Shown in pieces: positions 4,730 through 58,444 of a stretch of DNA of 64,000 bases (the stretch's first letter is position 1; every line of letters starts with the position of its first letter). The stretch is from Dictyostelium discoideum (lineage: Eukaryota). Position numbers and translations under genes: made by a program. The notes under the pieces were generated by a model. It saw only the letters and a program-made list of their open reading frames with translations, was not told the origin of the DNA and did no database searches. The stretch lies in contig CM000152.2 in the NCBI GenBank assembly GCA_000004695.1, positions 2,592,001 through 2,656,000 on the forward strand. The letters are read 5' to 3'.

Positions 4730-5278
4730 TGGTTCCTAACATTTAAAATTTTTTTTTTTATATTTATTATTTAGTTATTATTATTAATTATTACAATTTT
4801 AATATTTATTTATAAATATCAATTGGCTGTAAATGAAATTAATAGATTATTAAAAGTTGTAAAGAATAATACTGGTGGTACAATTAATAATGAAAATAAT
4901 AATATTGGTGATGAAGAAATTGAATTGAAATTAAAAAGAATTTATATATTATCATTTATTAGTGTAAATTTCTTTGCAGTAGTTTGGGCAAGAGGATTAT
5001 ATACACCATTTATGTGTTGGTATTTCTATACACTACCAATCATATTGTATTTCGCTAAATTCTCTTATACTTTTATTGTATTATTTTGGTTAGCTCACGA
5101 AATACTATTTAGATTCTTTAAAGATTTCTATATTGAAATGTTGGGTACATTTATATTCTTAAATATAAATCTTTTAATTTTAATTAGATTATATAATAAT
5201 TTCAATTTTACAACTTCAACAAAATCTACAATTCCAAGAATAAAAACAAAAACTCAACAAAAAATCAAAACACAATAA
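3261..5278 (+). CDS. alg3: ALG3 (dolichyl-P-Man:Man5GlcNAc2-PP-dolichol alpha-1,3-mannosyltransferase) core. Exons are 3261(or earlier)..4198, 4356..4656 and 4775..5278.
   Basis: Three translated segments match conserved ALG3 blocks: AYTNDWPAH....YPAGFLYLYTLLYY / VLPILSNRLHLYNVRVVINDFPSTF; (R)FKLFSTLFSIIVSLKLNTIFHSPAILF...LVGLPFLMVNPVAYFTNAYDFSRTLLWEKTRNFKF; and ...AVVWARGLYTPFMCWYFYTLPIILYF...IRLY. These correspond to yeast/human ALG3 YPAGHVYIYSILYY, LLILSKRLHSIFVLRLFND, SVKMSSLLYVPAY...AFDFGRAFDYKWTVNWRF. Splice phases were checked: donor AG|GTAAAT at 4198/4199 (phase 2) joins acceptor TTAG| at 4355 to give codon AGA; donor TTG|GTAATT at 4656/4657 (phase 0) joins acceptor TTTAG| at 4774. 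The intron 4199..4355 is almost pure (TTA)n. Confidence 0.85.
4210..4300. repeat. (TTA)n microsatellite forming most of the alg3 intron.
   Basis: Direct reading of ttattattatt... between donor 4199 and acceptor 4355. Confidence 0.9.
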
Positions 5279-5303
5279 ATCAATAATTAAATAACTAAAT
5301 AAT

Positions 5304-5346
<43 letters not shown>

Positions 5347-5531
5347 AAATAAAAAGAAATGTATTTTTAATTAATTCCTTTATTTAAGTTTTTATAGTTT
5401 TCTATTTTTATTTTTTACTTTTTTTTATTATTAAAATATTTTAATTGATTTATAAAATTGATAGAAAAAAAAAAAAAAAGGAAAAAAAAAAAAAAAGAAA
5501 AAAATAAATAGTTAAATATTATATTATTTAC

Positions 5532-6253
5532 TTATTTAGTTTCAGCAAATAATTCTCTACCAATTAACATTCTTCTAATTTCACTTGTACCAGCACCAAT
5601 TTCATATAATTTAGCATCACGAAGTAAACGACCAGTTGGGAATTCATTGATGTAACCATTACCACCTAAAGTTTGAATTGCTTGTAAAGCCATTTGGGTT
5701 GCATTCTCAGCAGTGTATAAAATGACGGCAGCACAATCTTTACGAGAGGTGTAACCAGCATCGGCAGATTTAGCGACAGAGTAAACGTATGAACGACTTG
5801 CATTCAATAAAGTGTACATATCTGCGACTTTACCTTGCATCAATTGGAATTCACCAATTGGTTTACCAAATTGTTCACGTTGGTGAAGGTATGGAACAAC
5901 ATTATCCATACATGCTTGCATAATACCTAATGGACCAGCTGATAAAACTAAACGTTCATAATCCAAACCACTCATTAATACCTTGACACCACCACCAACA
6001 GTACCTAATACATTTTCATCTGGTACGAAACAATCTTCGAAAACTAATTCACATGTGTTACTTCCTCTCATACCAAGTTTATCTAATTTTTGACCAGTTG
6101 AAAAACCTTTCATCTCTTTTTCAATTAAAAATGCTGTAATACCTTTACTTCCTGCATTAATATCTGTCTTTGCATAAACAACTAAAACATTTGCATCTGG
6201 ACCATTTGTAATCCACATTTTATTACCATTTAATAACCAACCACCCTCTTTTT

Positions 6254-6299
<46 letters not shown>

Positions 6300-6325
6300 T
6301 TTATTATAACTACTATTATTTAATA

Positions 6326-6392
<67 letters not shown>

Positions 6393-6965
6393 GTAATAAT
6401 AATAATAGTAATAATAATAATAATAATAATTACCTGTTTTCTTTGCATTTGTTTTCATACTAACAACATCAGAACCAGCATTTGGTTCAGACATAGCGAG
6501 AGCACCAACAAAATCACCACTAATTAATTTTGGAAGATATTTATCTTTTTGAGCTTCATTTGCATTTCTAGTGATTTGATTGATACAAAGATTTGAATGG
6601 GCACCATAAGAGAGAGCGACTGAGGCTGATGCTCTTGATAATTCTTCCATTGCAATACAATGAGCGGTATAACCTAAATCTAAACCACCATATTTAGATG
6701 GTGCTGTAATACCTAATAAACCTAAATCACCCATTTTCTTCCACATTTCATTTGGGAATAAATTGTTTTTGTCAACATCAGCTGCGATTGGTGCTAATTC
6801 GTTTTGAGCAAATTCTCTAACACTTTCTTGTAATTGTAATAAGGTTTCATCAAATCCATTAATATCTCTACCTGTAAAAATGGAACGAGAAATAATATTT
6901 TTATTGCTTGATGAACTTTTAATAAATCCTAAAATATTACTTGATTTTTTTAATGATCTAAACAT
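5532..6965 (-). CDS. ivdA: Mitochondrial isovaleryl-CoA dehydrogenase (acyl-CoA dehydrogenase family). There are 2 exons: 6434..6965 and 5532..~6247. The intron (~6248..6433) is (AAT)n and poly-A.
   Basis: The translation aligns end to end with IVD: [141 protein letters not shown]. The true ATG is at minus 6965 (AATAAAATG); the track's upstream TTG start is spurious. The donor (minus) CAG|GTAATT maps to plus 6433/6434, and the acceptor to AAAAAG| at plus ~6248. The track ORF reads through the intron as polyY. Confidence 0.92.
6305..6425. repeat. (AAT)n microsatellite, ~40 units, forming most of the IVD intron.
   Basis: Direct reading: aataataat...; read-through on the minus strand gives the polyY stretch in the track ORF. 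Confidence 0.9.
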
Positions 6966-6995
6966 TTTATTACTGTTGTTTTGACGTCTCGACTT

Positions 6996-7031
<36 letters not shown>

Positions 7032-7427
7032 AAAAAAAAAAAAAAAAAAAAAACAATGAAAAGTAAAAAATTTTTAGGTGCTGGTAAAAAAGGGGTTTTG
7101 GTCAATAAAAAAAATAAAAAAAAAAAGAAAAAAAAATGTTCCCACAAATCCAAAACACCTTAATTTTTATTATTAACAATTAAAAAAAAAATAAAATAAA
7201 AATAAAAATTATAAAGAAAAAAGTAATGGAAATTTTACTTGTTTTAATTTTTTAAAAAAATTTATAAAAAGGTAATCTATTGCTGATGTAATATTTATTA
7301 TAATGGTTTTTCATATTTTTAATTTATTTATTTATTTGTTTATTTATTTGTTTACTTATAATTTTTTATTTTTTTATTTTTTTTTTTTTTTTTTTTTTTA
7401 ATTTTAAAAACTAGTAGTAGTTAATTT

Positions 7428-7872: not shown

Positions 7873-8334
7873 TACATTTTATTTATTTTTTTATTTTATT
7901 TTATTTTATTTTTACCTTAAAGAAATTGAAAAATGTTGATGAGTAACTAATAATAAAGGAGTGATTGTAAAATTAATCCATAATGATTGCATGAACCAAT
8001 AGATGAAAAATTTTTTTGGGTTATTTCTAACTTTATCAAAACGTTTATCTTTTTTATTTCTTTTAATTCTATCGTTGAGAAAAATTACTAACCTACTTGA
8101 CCATACAATAATGAAAATTGATACAATTAATGCACGTCTTAACCCATAAACATATCCACTCTCTCCAATATGTTCAATTTCATAATAATAGTTTTTGACA
8201 AGTGATAATAATCCAACTAAAACAAATGTTCCACATCCAAAAACATCATAATATCTTTTTGATTTTATTAAAAATGCTGAATGTAAAAATCCAACAAATT
8301 GAATTAAAAAAACTGATAAATAAATCCCCAACAT
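7428..8334 (-). CDS. DUF1295-family membrane protein (steroid-5-alpha-reductase C-terminal-like / ICMT-like fold). There are 2 exons: 7916..8334 and 7428..7812. The intron is 7813..7915.
   Basis: Exon 1 carries the family signature ...IVWSSRLVIFLNDRIKRNKKDKRFDKVRNNP...FMQSLWI. Exon 2 carries GLWKRLCRHPNYFSEIMMHWIIYF (the xLWxYSRHPNYFGE motif of DUF1295). The donor is AG|GTAAAA (phase 2; the in-frame TAA at the donor is what ends track ORF 7912..8334). The acceptor is TTATTAG| at 7813, and the phases are consistent (419 nt + 385 nt). ATG is at minus 8334. Confidence 0.75.
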
Positions 8335-40054: not shown

Positions 40055-40481
40055 TAGTATTTATAATTATATGAATTTAAAATTCATAATAATTAATTTA
40101 TAGATTTCAAGATTAAAGTTAAAATTAAACATTTAAGACAATATTTTTCCCCAAACAAAAATAAAATCCATTCTTTTAATTTTTTTTTTTCAAACAGCAA
40201 ATTCTGAAATTTCTTATATAATCTTTTTGAAAAATAAAAATAAATTAAAAGTTATTTATTTGTAATATATTGAGATAGGTATTTTTTTTTTTTTTGTTGT
40301 ATTTTTATTATTTTTATTTAAGTTTCAACAAATGATTTATAATTTAAAAACCAATATGGATAAAATGTTTAATTTACAATTTGTTTTTTAATTTTTCCTA
40401 AAGCTTTGAAAATACTATTTTTTTTTGAATTGGAATTGAAAATACTATCAATATCGCTATTAAAAATTAAATTTTCAACAA

Positions 40482-40553
40482 GTTTCGATAGCTCAGTGGA
40501 AGAGCAAGCGACTGCAAATCGTTAGGTCGCCAGTTCAATCCTGGTTCGGAACT
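40482..40553 (+). tRNA. tRNA-Cys (anticodon GCA).
   Basis: The sequence GTTTCGATAGCTCAGTGGAAGAGCAAGCGACTGCAAATCGTTAGGTCGCCAGTTCAATCCTGGTTCGGAAC folds as a cloverleaf. It has a 7-bp acceptor stem, D-arm GCTC/GAGC, anticodon loop CTGCAAA (GCA at 34-36), and a T-loop TTCAATC. Confidence 0.85.
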
Positions 40554-40666
40554 TTCATTTTTAATTTTTTATTTTGTTTTAAATGATTGCCCCCTCTGTT
40601 TCCTCTCGATTTATCATATTTTCATTAAAATCTGACCATATTTAAAAGAGATTCAGTCATTTTAAA

Positions 40667-40687
40667 GTAAAATTATTATAAAAAAAA
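40667..40687. repeat. 5' target-site duplication of the TRE3-type element: GTAAAATTATTATAAAAAAA(A).
   Basis: An identical 20-mer recurs at 45936..45955, immediately after the element's poly(A). Confidence 0.8.
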
Positions 40688-43600
40688 CCGTACCGCGATC
40701 AAGAGGATACAAGATAGACGTGAAAAGTAATTCATCCTTTTCTATCCTTAATCTCGGTCAATTTTAACCAATCTTTCAAAAAAAATCACCAATCCACCAC
40801 GATCTACAGATCTAACTTACCAAATCGCCGATTCAAAGGAATCCCATCGAGATGAATTCCTACGCAGACGCGGCTAAAATGGCCAACCCCTCCACCCATA
40901 TGGACGAGGCATCAGAGAACTTCATTAAGGAATTCTCCACAAAAACAGCAGAGATAAAGGAGACCTACCCCAAATTATCAATAGGCCTCAAAGACATCTC
41001 CAAATACTGCGAGACCATATTGAACATGACTGCGCTCTCAACCTACGAGAAAAACAACGGATTCTACCCAATTACACTCGAATTCCCCAAAATGGATCTC
41101 ATGGGGTTAGAAGAAATGAGAAAAACACTCTCAAACTACGATATCCCAATCGACAAGATATACATAGGCAAAGGAACTAGAAAAATGATCCACCTGATGA
41201 TTAAAAACGAACAATCTCTCCTAAATATCATTAGAGATAGAAGCAAATTGGGAACCTTCATCACCTCCAGTAGAGACTACCACGTCCTCACAGGAAGAGT
41301 AAGAATTCCAAGAGAAAAGGCAGGAATAGTGGACGCCCTCATCAAAACTGCCTTTGCAGAAGAAATACCCTATGCAATATACCATACTATATACTCCACC
41401 GACCACCTCCTAGTATTCGGTCTAATAGAATGCAAAATAGGCGATCAAATGAAATCTGGCCAACACAATACAGAAATCGCCAACTTTACCATCAGAACGG
41501 CCACCAAAACCTACTCCTCACAAAAGAAAAATAAGAAAGTAGAGTCAAACAACACGGAAGAACCATTAGAAGATGAGATGACAGATGATCCTCCCAACAC
41601 CCAAAACAGGATAGCAATCAAATCCTCTCAACCAAAACCACAACAACAAACAAACAACCCAGCAAAAAATCAGTCTGATAAACAATCAACCCAAGAGAAA
41701 AAAGCCCAATCAAAAAAGCCCTCTCAACCTCTTCCCCCCAAAAACCAAGCAGAATCTCAATCTGTCAAACCCACCACAACCACTACCACAACATCCAACG
41801 CCATCCAAAAAGACAATGCCAACAAAACGAGCACTAACATCCATTCATCCTCGGAAAACAGAGAGAAGACACCAAACATCCCTCCATCACATAAACGCAA
41901 GAACGAGGAAATCCACTCAAACAACGAGGTCACCCAACTCTCACCAACAATAAACAGAAGCAACCCTTACATCCCATCCACCCCTAAGACACCTGTCAAA
42001 AATGAAAGGAAAGGAATCATTGAGAGCTTCATAGAGAGTATCTACCCTTCACCATCCAAACCGCAGCTATACGACTCCCAAGAGGAGATCGATATCATCT
42101 CATAATGGTAGTAATCAAAATCAACCAATGGAATGTCAGAGGTTGGGGCACTGACACCTCCTTCAAAAACAAAACAGACTTTATCAAATCCCAATCCCCC
42201 CCAAACTCATTGGCACTAACCATAGTCAATGAACTCAACGCCGACGCAACACAAGCACACCAGCTATTTCCTGGCTCCATCATTAGCGCAACCAACAGAG
42301 GCAACGGAATAGGAATACTAAACCACAACAACCAAAACATAAAACTCTCACCAATATTCATAATAGAAGGTAGACTAATAATATCAGACATTCTAATAAA
42401 AGATACCACAACGAGAATCTTGGCCATATACGCCCCGGCCCAACCTGATAAAAGAAAAACACTAGCTTCAACACTAAACAAACACTTCAACAACCAATAC
42501 CACAACCTAACGTCTAACCCTAATAAAAACATCGACATCATAGCAGGCGACTTCAACTGTTTAGACTTCAATGACAATCACACATCAAATGATGACCAAG
42601 GCAACTTGACAACACAATCCCCAGATGAGATGGCCACAGTAATCGAAGCCATCAGAATTTCAAATAACCTAATGGATATGGACCAACTAAATAAAAGACC
42701 CACCTTCTCAAGAACGATACACAACACAAACAATAACCTCACAAGAATCTTGGAAAGGAGACTAGACAGAATATACCTTAACAATAGCATAATCAACTAC
42801 AGCCAATTATACTTAAGGAACCTAATCCCCCCAAAAATTAACAACATACCTCTATCAGATCACAACTTCCTATCAACCACCTTCACTCTACCCAACATAC
42901 AGATGAACATGCGCAGATGGAGATTAAAAAATCCTCAATCCTCTCAAGCATAATGCTTAAGAAAATAGACTTCCTACTTAACGATTATTCAAGGGAGTTG
43001 TCATCCAACCATAACTCTATTTCCTTCTCTCAACTCAACAGCTTACTGAACAAAATAAAACAACTATACACAGAATTTCAAAAACAAAACGACTACAACA
43101 ATAAGGCAAACATCAAAAATCTAATCTCCCTACTAGAGACAGAATTTAAAGACCAAGCCTTCGCAACCCTTTCAGCAATAAATGAATCTAAAAGAAGAGA
43201 AGAACAACTTAAACAAGAATTGAACAACTATTGCGAAGAAACCTCACTCAAGTACATCTCCGCGAGAATCAAGAAAAGACATAATGATTTCACCATCAAC
43301 GCAGTAAAAGATGCACAAGGTAGAACAATTAACAAACAGGAATTGATCGAAGAAGAATACGTAAAATATTACTCAAATCTTTATGACTACAAAGAAGATG
43401 ACCCACCATCTCATTATGAAATGTTGGAAAATTGGACAGTGACCAGGGACTCAACATGGGACAACCTTGAAAACGAATTCACATCACAAGAGATCCTAGA
43501 AGTAATAAAACAATTGAACCCACACAAATCTCCAGGCCCAGATGGAATTCCAAACTTATTCTACATAACACACAAAGAAAAACTAGCTCCAATACTGGCC

Positions 43601-45935
43601 TCAGCATTCAACGACACTCTAAGAAATCCTCATCTAATTAGCAAAAATTACAAAGAAGGCCTCATTATCACGATACCTAAAAAGGGAGACCCCGAACTAA
43701 TCAAAAACAGAAGACCAATTACACTGGCCAACTGTATATATAAAATCCACTCAAAACTAATAAACAATAGAATAATCCCAATACTAACGAAAGTGATCAA
43801 CCACAATCAAAAAGGTTTCGTACCAGGCAGATTCATTCTAGATAATATCATATCAATGAACGAATTAATCAACTATTGTAATGATAAAAGAATAAACGGA
43901 ATAATTACACTATATGATTTCGAAAAAGCTTTTGACTCGATCTCACACGGTTCAATACTCAGATCACTACAACACATCAACATTCCAACCAATATAATCA
44001 ACCTGATAATGAATCTACTCACCAAATCTGAAGCAAGAATTGAAATTAATGGTAGAACTACTATACCCTTTGAGATCAAAAGAGGAGTTAAACAAGGAGA
44101 TCCACTATCACCCACCCTGTTCGTCCTTGTAATAGAGGCTTTAGCTAGAAAAATTTTACAAGATGACCGAATTACTGGCCTTCCTCTAAACAACAGCAAC
44201 CACAGAGAGAAATTCCAAAGCTTTGCAGACGACTCGGCTTCAATGGTCCCAGACTCTCAACAACTTGAATTAGTACTACAACACTTCAATTCATTTTGCA
44301 AAGCCACTTCCTCAAAACTAAACATCGACAAATCTTCATCAATTCTTATAGGCAACCCAGACAATACCAACCAAAGAATTCCAATATCTACAAATCCAGA
44401 AAGATACTTGGGATACTTCTTCACAGGCAAAGGGATAACAAGAAAAATGCCAGAAATATTAAACACAATAAGATCATCCTTAGTACTATGGAAAACCACT
44501 GACTCAACAATCAAAACCAAAACCAACATCCTCAAAGCATTCGCACTCTCTAAATTAACCTACTATTCATATGTAGAGAACTTTAAGGAAGAGGAATTAA
44601 ACCAAATCAATAAATTAGTCGAATGGTTTTTATCGGCACCAAACAACAAAAATGCTAGTGGATTTCAAGTTATTAATTTAATGAGAACCAAAAGAGCAAG
44701 ATACCCACTAAAAGTAGGAGGCTGGAACATTTGGAATATAGAATTGAGACAACTGGCGCAGAAACTTTGGATCATAAACCAGTTCATCCTAGCACTAGAA
44801 ACCAAACAAACAAACTCATCTCATCACAAAAGCTGGGAATATCAGATCCAAAAAAACAAATTCACATCCAGATACCTAAAAGAAAACTTAGACGAATGGA
44901 ACAAAATAAGAATAAAAAAAGCAATCTTCAACAATAATCTCACATCCATAAAAAACGAAAATGGACAACCACTTTCACTGGCAGAATGGTATACCACAAT
45001 TCAAGACCAAAATCCAACCATCCCTAAAACGGAATTCCAATCATCTCTAAACTTAAGAGGCTACAGCTATAATCAACTCTTCAACAATATACTGAAGATA
45101 AAAGACCCTAAAACAAGAGACACAATGTTTAGATTCCATGCCAGATGCCTTCCAATAAACTACCTTCACAACAAACAATGCCCACTCTGCAAAGAAGATA
45201 TGAGCAAAGACCCATACGGTCACCTGTTCTTCTCATGCAAGAAAACAAAACAATTCATAAAAATAAATAAACTCAAAAATTTCATCTTTATTACCACAGG
45301 CAAAGGTAAAAACTGGCACCATACAAGAATTAGGCAAAATAACAATTTCATTAATAGAATAACTCCAAAATTATCACCGACAGCCAAAAAAGATCAAGAA
45401 GTGAATGCAGATTACGCCAACCACAGATTCCACAAAGAATACTTTGAATGGAACTATAAAGCAATAGACTATGATCTAACCAGATCATTCGCATATAGAA
45501 ACCTAATGGCCCTTATCCTCCACAACATTTGGATTTGGATTTGCAATCAAATATACAGTGAAGATCCTTTAACAGATGAATCACTATCATACAGCTCCCT
45601 TCTAAAGAAATGGCACAAATTGGCCACTCTAGAATACATCAAAAAAGCAAAAGATCTGAAAAACTTATCAGCAAAAGACCATAATAACTTCAAAGATCCT
45701 AAGATCCTTCTCACTTCAACGATCAAGCTAAGAAAAACAACAGCTAATTACTATTGTATTCCAGAATCATCTCTCCCAAATATTATATCTTTTGATCAAT
45801 TCATATGATTAAAATAACCCTTCAGCTTAAATGATAAGCCTTTAAATAAATATTAAATAAAACTCGTATTAACACAGATGGACATATATCAATCTTGTTA
45901 ATCCAATATTAAAAAAAAAAAAAAAAAAAAAAAAA
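40688..45935 (+). mobile_element. Full-length non-LTR (LINE-like) retrotransposon of the tRNA-targeted TRE3 type (size and position fit TRE3-A/Tdd-3). It is 5,248 bp. ORF1 is 40852..42105. ORF2 is split: the APE endonuclease part is 42105..42953 and the RT plus C-terminal Cys-rich zinc-finger part is 42917..45808. It ends in a 3' poly(A) at 45911..45935.
   Basis: The element is distinctly GC-richer than its surroundings. ORF2a has an AP-endonuclease fold (INQWNVRGW...IAGDFNC...SDH). ORF2b has RT motifs (RPITLANCIYKIHSKLI, LYDFEKAFDSISH, the FADD motif in QSFADDSASMV, and C-terminal CPLCKEDMS...HLFFSC). The ORF1 stop and ORF2 start overlap as TAATG at 42103-42107. It was inserted 134 bp downstream of tRNA-Cys in the same orientation. 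It is flanked by a 20-bp direct repeat. Confidence 0.7.
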
Positions 45936-49845: not shown

Positions 49846-53863
<4,018 letters not shown>

Positions 53864-53963
53864 NNNNNNNNNNNNNNNNNNNNNNNNNNNNNNNNNNNNN
53901 NNNNNNNNNNNNNNNNNNNNNNNNNNNNNNNNNNNNNNNNNNNNNNNNNNNNNNNNNNNNNNN
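53864..53963. other. Assembly gap (100 N).
   Basis: A run of n characters. It is flanked on one side by a low-complexity coding exon and on the other by the terminal inverted repeat of a repeat element. Confidence 0.99.
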
Positions 53964-55790
53964 AATTACCTTATTAATTTCAGCAGCCATATTAATTTCA
54001 GCATGTACATAGCTGCCAAAATTAATATGGTAATTTTGGCATAGAAAAAAAAAAAGTCAAAGTCATTTAATTAATAATCATCTCAAATATAAACAAAATT
54101 TTAGTACTAAAATTAATATTATTATTATTTTTATTTTAATAATTATAATAATAAAAAAAAAAAAAAAAATTTTCATATTATTTTATTTATATCTTTTATT
54201 TATTTTTATCTTTTTATTTTTATTATTAATTTTATAATTTATTTTCATTTCTTTTTTTTTTAGTTGATATATATTTTTTTATTATTCATTTATTTCTAAG
54301 GCTAACAAAAAAAAAAAATTAAAAATAAAAAAAAAAAATAAAATAAAAAAAAAAAAAAAAAAATTAAAATAATTTTTTTTTTTTAATTTTTTTTTTTTAA
54401 TTATCTACTCTTCTACTTACTCTTTTGTTACTAACAGATGAAGTTTCGTTTGAAAATCTTTTGGTGAAAAAATCAGCATCAGATTGTAATTGATTAGCTC
54501 TTTTTTTACCCGTTTTGTTTTTGTTTGATTGAGTTGTGATTCCACCATTATTGGAAGTTGTTGCAGCTTCATGTGTTGATCTAACTTCGGTGGTAGAGTG
54601 CTCGATTGCTTTTCCAACTAGGTCATCTGTTGATTTTCTTTTGGTTATTTCGATATCCCTTTGCAATTTATTTTTACTTGAGAGTTTGGTGGCCTCTATT
54701 CTAGAAGTAGGCTCAGTATTGTAATAAGCCTTTATAATAGCAGAATGATTATCTGCTTTATAATGATTACTGATGTGCTGTTGACACTGGTTTTGATTAA
54801 TCATATGAGAGACACCATCTTCATCTTTGTTAAGCCTAACCTTCTCTATAATCTTCACTAAGTCTTTTGGGTACCAATTTTTTCTTTTTATCTTTATCAA
54901 TATAAAACACTTCTTTAATAGTTGCCGTACCATATTCTACATTCTCAACAACATACTGTTTATCCAAAATGTTTTTCCAATAGCTTATATTTTGTCCACT
55001 CAATTTGGTATTATGAAATTTATAATCTATTTTAAATTTTACATCTTCGTCATATTTTTCCAAGAGTTTTTTTAATTTATTTTTATTATTTTTTCAATTT
55101 CTGTTGCAGAAAGTTGATTATTTAATTTATTGTCTTTACTGAAGACCATTTTTTGGAACGAAAACTTTAAAAAAATAAAAAAATAAAAAAAAAAATACTT
55201 TTTTTTTTTAATTTTTTATTTTTATATTTTTTTTTTTATATTTTTTTTTTTTAAATTTTTTTTTTTAATTTTTTTTTTTTATTTTATTTTTTTTAAGTTT
55301 CGAACAATTATATATAAAAAAAAAGTAAAAGATATCCCTTCGGTTAATTAAATAATAATAATAATAATAATAATAATATAATAATAATAATAATAATAAT
55401 ACTTATTTCGAAATGTTTAAACAATCATACAGTTTAAAATTAAATAAATTGTTTTAAACCACCACTTTTTTTGAACACATGAAAATAAATAAGATATAAA
55501 AATAATAAGATAAAAAAAGATTTTTTTTTTTTTTTTTTTTTTATTTTATAATTATTCTTGTCGTCAGTATTGTTACTATAATTAATCCCATGAGTTTTTT
55601 TTATTATTATTTTTAATTCTTTTATATTTGAGATGATTATTATTAATTAAATGACTTTGAGTTTTTTTTTTTATATTTCTATGCCCAAAATTACCATATT
55701 AATTTCAGCAGCCATATTAATTTCAGCCTAAAATAGTTGGTCTGTGCATGCCAAAATTAATATGGCTGCTGAAATTAATATGGTAATTCT
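53964..55790. mobile_element. Putative DNA-transposon-like unit, unclassified. The left inverted repeat is 53964..54098 (truncated by the gap). The right inverted repeat is ~55608..55790. The ~1.5-kb internal region carries one frameshifted ORF on the minus strand. The subterminal regions are built from 16-bp palindromic units GCTGAAATTAATATGG / CCAAAATTAATATGG and their complements.
   Basis: Region 54003..54098 (GCATGTACATAGCTGCCAAAATTAATATGGTAATTTTGGCATAGAAAAAAAAAAAGTCAAAGTCATTTAATTAATAATCATCTCAAATATAAAC) matches the reverse complement of 55608..55710 at ~90%. Region 53964..54002 matches the reverse complement of ~55740..55790. The core AATTAATATGG recurs >=10 times in both orientations. 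Confidence 0.5.
54397..55063 (-). CDS. Internal ORF of the IR-bounded element. Track ORFs 54836..55063 and 54397..54933 become one ~250-aa reading frame with a single -1/+1 shift in the A-run GATAAAGATAAAAAGAAAAAATTGG. It is hypothetical and basic, with a Ser/Thr-rich C-terminal part.
   Basis: The two overlapping frames (MEKYDEDVKFKIDYKFHNTKLSGQNISYWKNILDKQYVVENVEYGTATIKEVFYIDKDKKK... and ...KNWYPKDLVKIIEKVRLNKDEDGVSHM...KRANQLQSDADFFTKRF...) switch within a homopolymer run. No confident homology was found. Confidence 0.35.
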
Positions 55791-56227
55791 AGCAGACATA
55801 AGTCCCATGCCAAAATTACCATATTAATTCCAGCAGCCATATTAATTTTGGCATGGGACATGCAACATAAAATTTTTATTGCCATTGATTAATTTTTTAG
55901 GTTTTTTTATTTTGTTTTTTTTTTAATTTTTTAAGTAGAAGTATTTTTAAAAAATTAATAAAAAACGAAGGTTAAATAAATAAAAATTAGAGCCAGTTTT
56001 CCCTCAAAATAAAAAAGGCTATTTTCAATACGTCCTGGTGAAAAATTTCACAACAACCTCATACTGTTTATGTATTGCACATTATCATATTTATTTTTAT
56101 TATTCATTGTGTGTCTCAAGACCTTATAAAATTGACAGATATCTCTTTTTGAAAAATCTATTTTTATTTATAATTTTTTTTTTTTTTTTTTATTTACTCT
56201 AATAATTTTTTATAAATTTCCTTGATA

Positions 56228-56499
56228 CTATTTTTCCTCGATAATCTTAAAACAATTCCAAGGATATACACATGGGCTATTGTTGAATTGTTGTTTACAA
56301 GAAGGTGATTTATAAATTTGGATATTACTTGTTATTGGAATTCCTTCGGTTTGTATATCGTCAACATATATAACACTAACACTTGGTGGTATTTCATATA
56401 TTTTTTGATCGAATCCATCCAATAAAAAAAGTGAGGAAACACCTGGTGGTATTGAACCACCCGATAATGGTTTTTTAATAGCTCCAACATATAATGTTT
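56228..56499 (-). pseudogene. FNIP-repeat exon fragment (a truncated extra copy of the FNIP array). Its upstream part was replaced by the palindromic repeat element.
   Basis: ...LYVGAIKKPLSGGSIPPGVSSLFLLDGFDQKIYEIPPSVSVIYVDDIQ... carries FNIP-repeat signatures but lacks the B-box and coiled-coil exons. Confidence 0.5.
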
Positions 56500-56650
56500 G
56501 CCCCATGCCAAAATTAATATGGTAATTTTTAGGAGCCATATTAATTTCAGCATGCATATACAACCTGTTTTTAGGCTGAAATTAATATGGTAATTTTAGC
56601 CTGCTGGAATTAATATGTTGAAATTGGCATGGAACATATACTACATGTAA
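56500..56650. repeat. Solo copy of the inverted-repeat end (palindromic AATTAATATGG units), inserted at or over the 5' part of an FNIP-repeat exon.
   Basis: CATGCCAAAATTAATATGGTAATTTTTAGGAGCCATATTAATTTCAGCATGCAT...GGCTGAAATTAATATGGTAATTTTAGCCTGCTGGAATTAATATGTTGAAATTGGCATGG. The minus-strand ORF 56228..56563 begins MYMHAEINMAPKNYHINFGMG, which is a translation of the repeat, before switching to FNIP sequence (LYVGAIKKPLSGGSIPP...). Confidence 0.6.
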
Positions 56651-56954: not shown

Positions 56955-58296
56955 TTAAAATTCAATTTTAGGCTCCCAATTACCACCATCCCAATTTCTC
57001 ACATTTGAGTGAGTGAGTTGTTGTTTATATTTTGGGCTTCTGTGAATAAGGATTTTGGAATATGGGAAATTTGTTAAAGGAGTATCAAAAAGGAATAACT
57101 CTTTAACTGATTGTGGTATTTCAGTTATTTCTTGATTAAATCCATCTAATAATGACAAAGCAATAACACCATTTGGTATTGAACTTTTTAACAATGGTTT
57201 TTTAATTGCACCAACAAATAGAAATCTAATTGATTGTGGTAGCATGCCTTCTGTCAGTTGAACATTGAATCCATCAAGTAATAGTAAATTTTGAACCGAT
57301 GTTGGAATTGAACCTATTTTAATTGTTTTAACACTTGGTCCAATCGCTACATGAATAGTACCATTTGGAATGATAGAATCATTTTTATAAATAAAATATT
57401 CAGCTGTAAATCTTCCAGCTTTATATAAATAATAATTAAATATTAATAACCCTGTTAAAACAATACTATAGTGTTTTTTAATGATATTTACAAATAACTC
57501 TTTTTGGATCCTTTACATTTGTAATAGAGAGAGAATTGCTAATTTCAAATATTTCTTTAATTGAATTTTTAACTTGTTCGCTATTATTTACAATATTTAC
57601 ATTTTTATATTGATTTATTAATTCTTTGATTTTATTTTCATTTTGATTATCTTTTATTAATAGTTGTGATTGAGAACAATGTTTTAATATTTCAATATGT
57701 TGATCGTTATTATTATTAATGATTTTATCAATATTTATATGATTTATTGTATTTTTATATTTATTTGTAATTAAATTAATATTATTTAAATTATCATGTA
57801 TTGTGGTTGAAATGTTTGTATTGATATCTTTATTTTCATCATAGAGTGTTACTAATTGTTTGATTTTATCAATTTCAATGATTGGTAATAATTTGGAGAG
57901 TTCTTTAAATACTTCTGTGATTGTATTTACATTTTCAGTGTGTTTATCTTCTATTGATTTAAATAAGTTATTTGATTTATTTAATAATTCATTATTGATA
58001 TCAATTTGTTTATCTAAATTTTGAATATGATTATTTTTAAATTCTTCAAAGATTTTTTTTGAATTCTCCACATCTATACGATCAAGTTTATGACCATTAT
58101 GATCTGAAAGAATACATTCAATACATACTACTACCTATTTTATTTATGATAATCATAAAAAATGAGTAAGAATTACCTTTTATTTAAAAGGGTGGAGATA
58201 TGTTACGATATTTACCTTACATGTTGCACATATTATTTTGATTTTGTGCTCTTTATGTATTGCACATTTTCTATCGTATTTATTTTTATTATCCAT
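56955..58296 (-). CDS. B-box zinc finger / FNIP-repeat protein, array copy 1. There are 3 exons: 58216..58296 (B-box: MDNKNKYDRKCAIHKEHKIKIICATCK), 57492..58134 (second half of the B-box, VVVCIECILSDHNGHKLDR, plus a coiled-coil region) and 56955..57418 (FNIP repeats, ending ...NWDGGNWEPKIEF*).
   Basis: Track ORFs 57478..58071 and 56955..57245 lie in the same gene. The donors are AAG|GTAAAT (phase 0) and ATTT|GTAAAT (phase 1). The acceptors are AAATAG| at 58135 and ATAAAG| at 57419 (T+CT = Ser). FNIP signatures: IKIGSIPTSVQNLLLLDGFNVQL, LPQSIRFLFVGAIKKPLLKSSIPNGVIALSLLDGFNQEITEIPQSV. Confidence 0.65.
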
Positions 58297-58444
58297 TGTG
58301 TGAGAGAATTTTTTAGAAAGTTAAAAAAAAAAAAAAATTTTGAAAAAAAAAAAAAAAAAAAAAAAAATTCAACTAACCCAAGATGTTGTTATGAATTTAT
58401 TAAAATCCAGATATTTGTAATTAATAAAGAACAATAATAACTAC

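Follow-up and report, generated by a model that had tools for sequence, protein, structure and literature searches.

A 64,000-nucleotide stretch of DNA from Dictyostelium discoideum (assembly GCA_000004695.1, contig CM000152.2, positions 2,592,001 to 2,656,000; hereafter the window, whose own coordinates are used throughout) holds, directly beside an assembly gap, an element bounded by inverted repeats that we identify with high confidence as a copy of thug-S, a DNA transposon already known from this organism, which is non-autonomous, of the cut-and-paste type and present in multiple copies. The identification follows from four independent lines of evidence: gene identity, the label given in dictyBase, published microRNAs (miRNAs) and Rfam. 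The window is AT-rich, with about 20-25% G+C, and the proteins encoded in it identify its source as D. discoideum.

Identity of the element and its copies

The 178-residue open reading frame (ORF) at 54397-54933 is letter for letter identical to DDB_G0279895 and DDB_G0282907 of strain AX4, and the 90% cluster to which the window ORF belongs further includes DDB_G0271154, DDB_G0271172, DDB_G0282703, DDB_G0271194 and the chimera DDB_G0270824. This reading frame recurs in at least eight AX4 gene models. In a 2025 transcriptome paper that uses the dictyBase labels, DDB_G0271154 appears as 'DDB_G0271154_TE, thugS element' (PMC12405889), and DDB_G0270824 is known as a thugS/Tdd-4 chimera (PMC3386910), the protein of which joins the thug-S ORF to a Tdd-4 transposase that has SPXX repeats. 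By identity or by membership of this 90% cluster, the product of the window ORF thus belongs with genes that bear the label thugS, and the dictyBase label of the ORF is thugS, not DDT. The other features of the family are found as well: the hairpins of the element are those described as sources of thug-S miRNAs (mir-7131 and miRNA_can_D3), the element is present in multiple copies, and these often lie beside Tdd elements, as in the chimera DDB_G0270824. No difference from thug-S was found, apart from single-base variants in the miRNA sequences and a left end that is lost in the gap. The preliminary description of this DNA had held that the element fits no known family and had named DDT, Tdd-4 and thug as excluded; a clear match to a known family does exist, to thug rather than to DDT or Tdd. 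thug-S was reportedly described by Glockner et al. in 2001, and as the family has been known since then, the finding itself is already known.

The full element has a length of about 1.97 kb, with the termini TGTCCCATGCC...GGCATGGGACA, i.e. TGTCCC...GGGACA, of the TG...CA type. Three complete copies (L002, L007 and L008) were obtained from the independent D. discoideum assembly GCA_054883475.1, each flanked by a perfect 6-bp target-site duplication, and in aligned columns these and the window copy are 99.5-100% identical, so that transposition was recent. L007 is gap-free and syntenic with the window, and judged from this copy the left terminus in the window is short by only about 72 bp, with the left copy of the target-site duplication falling inside the gap. 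An element that abuts 100 N with one arm incomplete could in principle be a local inverted duplication or an artefact of scaffolding rather than a mobile element, but the same element is intact at the syntenic site of the independent, gap-free assembly and at two other loci with 6-bp duplications of their own, and its ORF recurs in the AX4 gene models counted above; we give such an explanation next to no credence.

The sequence concealed by the gap can be approached through L007, where the equivalent region reads ...TTTGGCAGACCTAAGTCCCATGCC...GGCATGGGACA, followed by GTTGCA and about 380 bp of AT-rich sequence before a Tdd-type transposon and a long terminal repeat (LTR) retroelement are reached. 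Within 9.5 kb beyond the thug-S terminus of L007 there was no match to the left side of the window. Because other repeats rather than further thug-S copies follow the terminus, a mixed repeat cluster accounts better for the gap, on the sequence of L007, than do collapsed copies of thug-S, the cause that had been suggested for it before.

Terminal repeats and hairpins

The left arm of the element (53964 to about 54100) pairs with the reverse complement of about 55620-55788 in a gapped alignment, and over the extended alignment 216 of 237 positions are identical. Relative to the left arm the right one contains one extra 26-nt unit block, and it extends outward to 55860 through a 60-bp mini-palindrome, the left counterpart of which is lost in the gap. 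Each element end thus bears a composite inverted repeat of 205-240 bp, with arms composed of 16-18-bp units, CCATATTAATTTCAGC or CCATATTAATTTTGGC, that occur in both orientations. With at most one mismatch, the unit core AAATTAATATGG is found 12 times in three tight clusters versus twice elsewhere in the 64 kb, and the total of 14 occurrences was reached in none of 100 shuffles. In these respects the preliminary description holds: an inverted-repeat-bounded element does lie beside the gap, its left repeat does continue into it, and it is a DNA transposon with subterminal repeat arrays in both orientations. The repeats are also not unique to the locus, as evidenced by the three complete copies. 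The limits that it had drawn, 53864-55870, took in the whole visible element at 53964-55860 but left the third unit cluster (56499-56636) outside.

The arms form near-perfect hairpins (z = -11 to -12), and within the right terminal repeat the units fold into hairpins with perfect stems of 35-43 bp. The hairpin at 55689-55788 has folding energies of -53.6 kcal/mol on the plus and -60.9 kcal/mol on the minus strand (z = -11.4 and -12.4, respectively). A multicopy miRNA pair, AUUAAUUUCGGCAGCCAUAUU and UAUGGCUGCUGAAAUUAAUGUGG, has been assigned to the DNA transposon thug-S (Meier et al. 2016, PMC4894637), and both of these miRNA_can_D3 sequences match the right arm with one mismatch each, at 55698-55718 and 55761-55783. 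The start-to-start spacing of the two miRNA-like arms is 63 nt, equal to that of the six published loci. Note that, as it carries single-base variants of both sequences, the window copy stands outside the six exact loci of PMC4894637. A further hairpin, formed from the inner unit pair and the outer mini-palindrome, matches the Rfam model RF03716 (mir-7131) over its full length, and this match recurs in the complete copy L007. mir-7131 is reportedly the Dictyostelium entry from Avesson et al. 2012; no mention of it was found in the literature searched, and the supplement of PMC6161686 contained no match to thug or to the miRNA sequences.

As in other miRNA precursors derived from transposons or from miniature inverted-repeat transposable elements (MITEs), the palindromic repeats of thug-S fold into perfect stems that match a curated miRNA family. 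They differ in that each hairpin sits within a single terminal repeat and does not arise from pairing of the two element ends, since the units occur in both orientations in either repeat.

The remnant transposase gene, its full-length relatives and mobility

The ORF on the minus strand is broken, as had been described, albeit by two frameshifts (55095/55094 and 54870/54869) and not by a single one. The ORFs of all annotated copies begin with MVRQLLKKCFILIKIKRKNWYPKD. When the repaired 250-residue ORF was used as a query, D. discoideum proteins from newly sequenced strains were found, and these carry the Pfam domain rve, an integrase core. Pfam analysis of the reconstructed window ORF itself gave only noise, with no transposase motif and no rve, in agreement with the earlier observation that none is recognisable, and the reason is that the core has been deleted. 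The first 1,186 bp of thug-S are 98-100% identical to positions 5074-6261 of a full-length family member, the parent L003, and the match resumes at position 8037 of that locus. The 1,775-bp deletion in between takes out the entire rve/DDE core and joins the N-terminal part of the transposase to its C-terminal exon.

The absence of a Pfam transposase motif, together with an exhaustive HMMER search that found no counterpart outside the D. discoideum complex for the N-terminal ~165 residues kept by thug-S, might point to an undescribed transposon family or to a MITE that has captured a host ORF, as had originally been proposed. However, dictyBase lists the ORF as a thugS element and the ends match mir-7131 and the thug-S miRNAs. 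On either side of the deletion the ORF follows the transposase gene of L003 in the same order and at 98-100% identity, and it is therefore, by sequence comparison, a remnant of the family's own transposase gene and not captured host DNA. Nor is the element a MITE in the usual sense, as it measures 1.97 kb and retains coding remnants of a transposase, whereas MITEs are shorter than about 800 bp, have no coding sequence and are made up essentially of their terminal repeats. Of the original proposal, the non-autonomous nature of the element stands, while its being undescribed, a MITE or the carrier of a captured gene does not, and we regard either form of this explanation as very improbable.

Ds from Ac and KP from the P element are examples of internally deleted, non-autonomous derivatives of autonomous DNA transposons. 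Likewise, thug-S has lost the catalytic middle of its transposase gene while the two extremities of that gene and the element ends survive, and it was amplified after the deletion. It differs in that its N-terminal frame is frameshifted twice in every copy, so that a KP-like repressor is unlikely, unless it is translated from the 178-residue ORF. As the frameshifts are common to all copies, the deletions that cause them predate amplification, and the element's own protein was therefore evidently not needed for the spread of thug-S.

In L003 the parent ORF (5784-7196) is open over 470 residues and includes an rve core at residues 181-329. Pfam rve scores in the full-length relatives are 60 bits, for L003, and 51.8 bits, against a cut-off of 32.6. 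In addition, the 470-residue ORF has a match, at E = 6e-8, in the catalytic core of the integrase from prototype foamy virus (PFV). A complete relative of 3,797 bp from a second strain (L004, 6026-9822) has the same terminus, similar unit arrays and a 6-bp duplication, TATGGA, so that the duplication is 6 bp in four of four elements (L002, L007, L008 and L004). The HMMER search, run with protein P0002 over 1.84 billion representatives, gave E < 1e-30 only for proteins of the D. discoideum complex. Matches outside Dictyostelium were confined to residues ~165-345, i.e. the generic rve core, at 25-40% identity, and the named ones that we looked up were mostly integrases of LTR retroelements.

These relatives resemble Tdd-4 and Tdd-5, the Ginger2/Tdd elements with an integrase-like transposase, a length of about 3.8 kb, terminal repeats of 260-297 bp and TG...CA ends, in size, in their long terminal repeats, in their termini and in the rve-type DDE core. 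Tdd-4 was reportedly described with TG...CA ends by Wells in 1999. Tdd elements moreover occupy the same genome and cluster with thug elements, thug-S adjoining Tdd-type elements at several loci, and thug-S might thus be taken for a deletion derivative of Tdd-4 or Tdd-5. For a direct comparison the finger-plus-core sequences of TDD4 and TDD5 were taken from the alignment file of the Ginger paper. The full-length thug-type transposase aligned to the TDD4 core over just 113 residues with 27% identity, the H2C2 finger region of TDD4 gave no alignment with the thug-type protein, and the orphan N-terminal ~170 residues set the latter further apart. Searches by tblastn with the TDD4 and TDD5 cores gave no match in the window, L001, L002, L004 or L008; in L003 the thug-parent ORF yielded a weak match with 27% identity (6474-6782, E = 5e-6), and strong matches were found only on neighbouring Tdd-type elements, in L003 and L007. 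The target-site duplication also differs, 5 bp having been reported for Tdd-4 and Tdd-5 (PMC2836005) versus the 6 bp seen here. In view of core identity, tblastn pattern and duplication length, we reject a Tdd-4 or Tdd-5 derivative as highly unlikely and retain the assignment to thug-S.

The neighbouring Tdd-type transposon itself lies at L007 11422-15600, 380 bp past the thug-S end, and the same element, at L003 8095-13196, truncates the thug parent. Its core is 55% identical to TDD4 and 44-65% to TDD5 of the Ginger paper, although identity to TDD4 reaches 96% over the first 50 residues; the element may represent a further Tdd subfamily or a mosaic.

A second derivative of the parent may be present outside the window. 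The model of the AX4 gene DDB_G0290953 (P0003) starts in a thug terminal repeat (MAAEINMVILA...) and then runs into the C-terminal exon of the parent, of which it includes more than thug-S does, which suggests another deletion derivative with a different breakpoint that may correspond to thug-T. Its numerical neighbour DDB_G0290955 is listed as Tdd-5 (PMC3386910).

For the mobility of thug-S we propose that a full-length, 3.8-kb family member would supply an integrase-type DDE transposase in trans, which would bind the repeated subterminal units, probably via its orphan N-terminal ~170 residues, would cleave at the TG...CA termini and would integrate the element with a 6-bp stagger. The palindromic ends, once transcribed, would be diced by DrnB/RbdB to RNAs of ~21-23 nt, and the small RNAs from thug-S ends would probably feed silencing of the family. 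Processing by DrnB/RbdB has been published for exact-match loci (PMC4894637), and the window copy has one-base variants.

Several points weigh against this picture. The name thug-S rests on dictyBase labels in two papers and on the miRNA literature, and that the N-terminal domain binds the repeat units is inferred. A fully intact transposase gene was present in none of the long copies retrieved: L004 is frameshifted in its N-terminal part, L001 lacks an internal segment and the right end, and L003 contains an insertion of about 760 bp in addition to its truncation by the Tdd-type element. Among annotated AX4 proteins none has this core, and the clusters that bear it hold no AX4 or UniRef member, although for TDD4 there is a RefSeq protein from AX4; that thug-S can still be mobilised in AX4 today is therefore unproven. 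Finally, an AlphaFold2 model of the full-length transposases, based on a 5-sequence alignment, was unusable (predicted local distance difference test score, pLDDT, of 37.7).

Note that the insertion in L003 (7149-7907) has inverted ends of its own and GGTAATTTTTAA-like tandem repeats, and splits the thug-parent transposase ORF between '...PPEDV' and 'EFKDVEFNQ...'. ARAGORN called no tRNA in a tRNA-like stretch that it contains.

Surroundings of the element and significance

The features of the window and the complete copies of the element are collected in the table.

Table. Features of the element assigned to thug-S and of its surroundings, in window coordinates, and complete copies from GCA_054883475.1, in the coordinates of their loci
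Feature	Position	Strand	Remarks
Assembly gap, 100 N	53864..53963	.	conceals outermost ~72 bp of left terminus plus sequence beyond
Non-autonomous DNA transposon assigned to thug-S, visible part 1,897 bp	53964..55860	- (ORF strand)	99.5-99.95% identical to complete copies L002, L007, L008
Left terminal inverted repeat, cut by gap, 3' side of ORF	53964..54100	.	units ...ATTAATTTCAGC AGCCATATTAATTTCAGC ... GCTGCCAAAATTAATATGGTAATTTTGGC; inner block GTCATTTAATTAATAATCATCTCAAATAT
Remnant transposase ORF	54397..55149	-	keeps N-terminal ~170 and C-terminal ~90 codons of parent transposase, without catalytic core
Junction of 1,775-bp internal deletion	54680..54681	-	L003 6262-8036 lost; protein ...SRIEATKLS/SKNKLQRD...
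Frameshift 2, 8-bp deletion	54869..54870	-	relative to parent L003 6065-6072; common to all annotated copies
Frameshift 1, 1-bp deletion	55094..55095	-	relative to parent L003 5839
Right terminal inverted repeat, 241 bp, 5' side of ORF	55620..55860	.	terminus ...GGCATGGGACA at 55860, same in L002, L007, L008
Hairpin equivalent to published thug-S miRNA precursor miRNA_can_D3	55689..55788	+	3p-like arm 55698-55718, 5p-like arm 55761-55783
mir-7131 precursor hairpin (Rfam RF03716)	55757..55845	-	match at 55757-55843; 96.2 bits minus, 90.7 plus; gathering score 74; model 1-84 full
Outermost mini-palindrome, 59-60 bp (GTCCCATGCC...GGCATGGGACA)	55802..55860	.	-25.7 kcal/mol, z = -6.7; both ends of complete copies
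Target-site duplication, right copy TGCAAC (GTTGCA on other strand)	55861..55866	.	window flank; GTTGCA on both sides in L007
Separate solo palindromic thug-type terminal module, 138 bp (TGCCCCATGCC...GGCATGGAACA)	56499..56636	.	third unit cluster; diverged; fold z = -5.7
Complete copy L002	4061-6040		duplication ATTAAC
Complete copy L007	9068-11042		duplication GTTGCA; syntenic with window, 99.5% over 10 kb
Complete copy L008	9081-11035		duplication TATAAC

The solo module that forms the third unit cluster shares about 82% identity with the repeat found in the 3.8-kb full-length relatives, and its match to mir-7131, at 27 bits, is below threshold. Although both 'ends' are present, there is no target-site duplication around 56499-56636, the flanks being AATGTT and TATACT; the module has the anatomy of a MITE without the duplication. 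It directly adjoins a fragment of an FNIP gene that lacks the N-terminal part, as if the module had inserted long ago and neighbouring sequence had been deleted later. In L007 it has the same position.

Genes for proteins with a B-box zinc finger and FNIP repeats are arranged in tandem here, at 55990-56090, 56228-56500 and 56955-58307, all on the minus strand, and onward to 64000. The two copies nearest thug-S are dead, one being a start remnant (MNNKNKYDNVQYINSMRLL*) and the other a C-terminal fragment, and the syntenic assembly annotates three intact FNIP paralogues upstream. On the other side of the element, an ORF of 1,213 residues very rich in poly-Q, poly-N and other low-complexity sequence is located at 49846-53487 on the minus strand, and a coding stretch rich in Pro, Gln, Ser and Thr (53616-53863, minus strand) reaches the left edge of the gap, so that a host gene is interrupted by the gap as well. 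Further away, a tRNA-Cys(GCA) gene (40481-40554, plus strand) is followed about 300 bp downstream by a non-LTR retroelement with three ORFs (40852-45808), the last of which matches RVT_1 at 118 bits. The region 40481-45808 shows a higher G+C content and a strong strand skew, and its arrangement is that expected of a tRNA-gene-targeted retrotransposon of the TRE3 type.

For the thug family as a whole, a review of 2017 stated that no transposase of a Dictyostelium DNA transposon resembles known ones and that Thug elements make up 0.1% of the genome (PMC5633606). Our data allow the tentative suggestion, which we hold with rather less than even confidence, that thug is not a class devoid of a recognisable transposase but the deleted offspring of a third, previously uncharacterised rve DDE cut-and-paste lineage in D. 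discoideum, one distinguished by a length of 3.8 kb, 6-bp duplications, an orphan N-terminal domain and a core that is about 27% identical to that of Tdd-4, is missing among annotated AX4 proteins and is found only in newly sequenced strains. If this were true, the laboratory strain may have thug-S but lack its transposase, which would leave the element stranded. It may be new that thug-S traces back to a 3.8-kb parent of the rve type that makes 6-bp duplications, and that the core of this parent is apparently absent from the AX4 proteome; a thug-T or Repbase entry may already cover this parent.

The analysis thus removes a false lead towards a new transposon, as dictyBase already annotates thug-S and its ends figure among curated miRNA precursors. 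At the same time the origin by a 1,775-bp deletion, the 6-bp duplications and the absence of the core from annotated AX4 proteins bear on the mobility of thug-S in laboratory strains, and on the question why its hairpin ends feed the small-RNA pathway.

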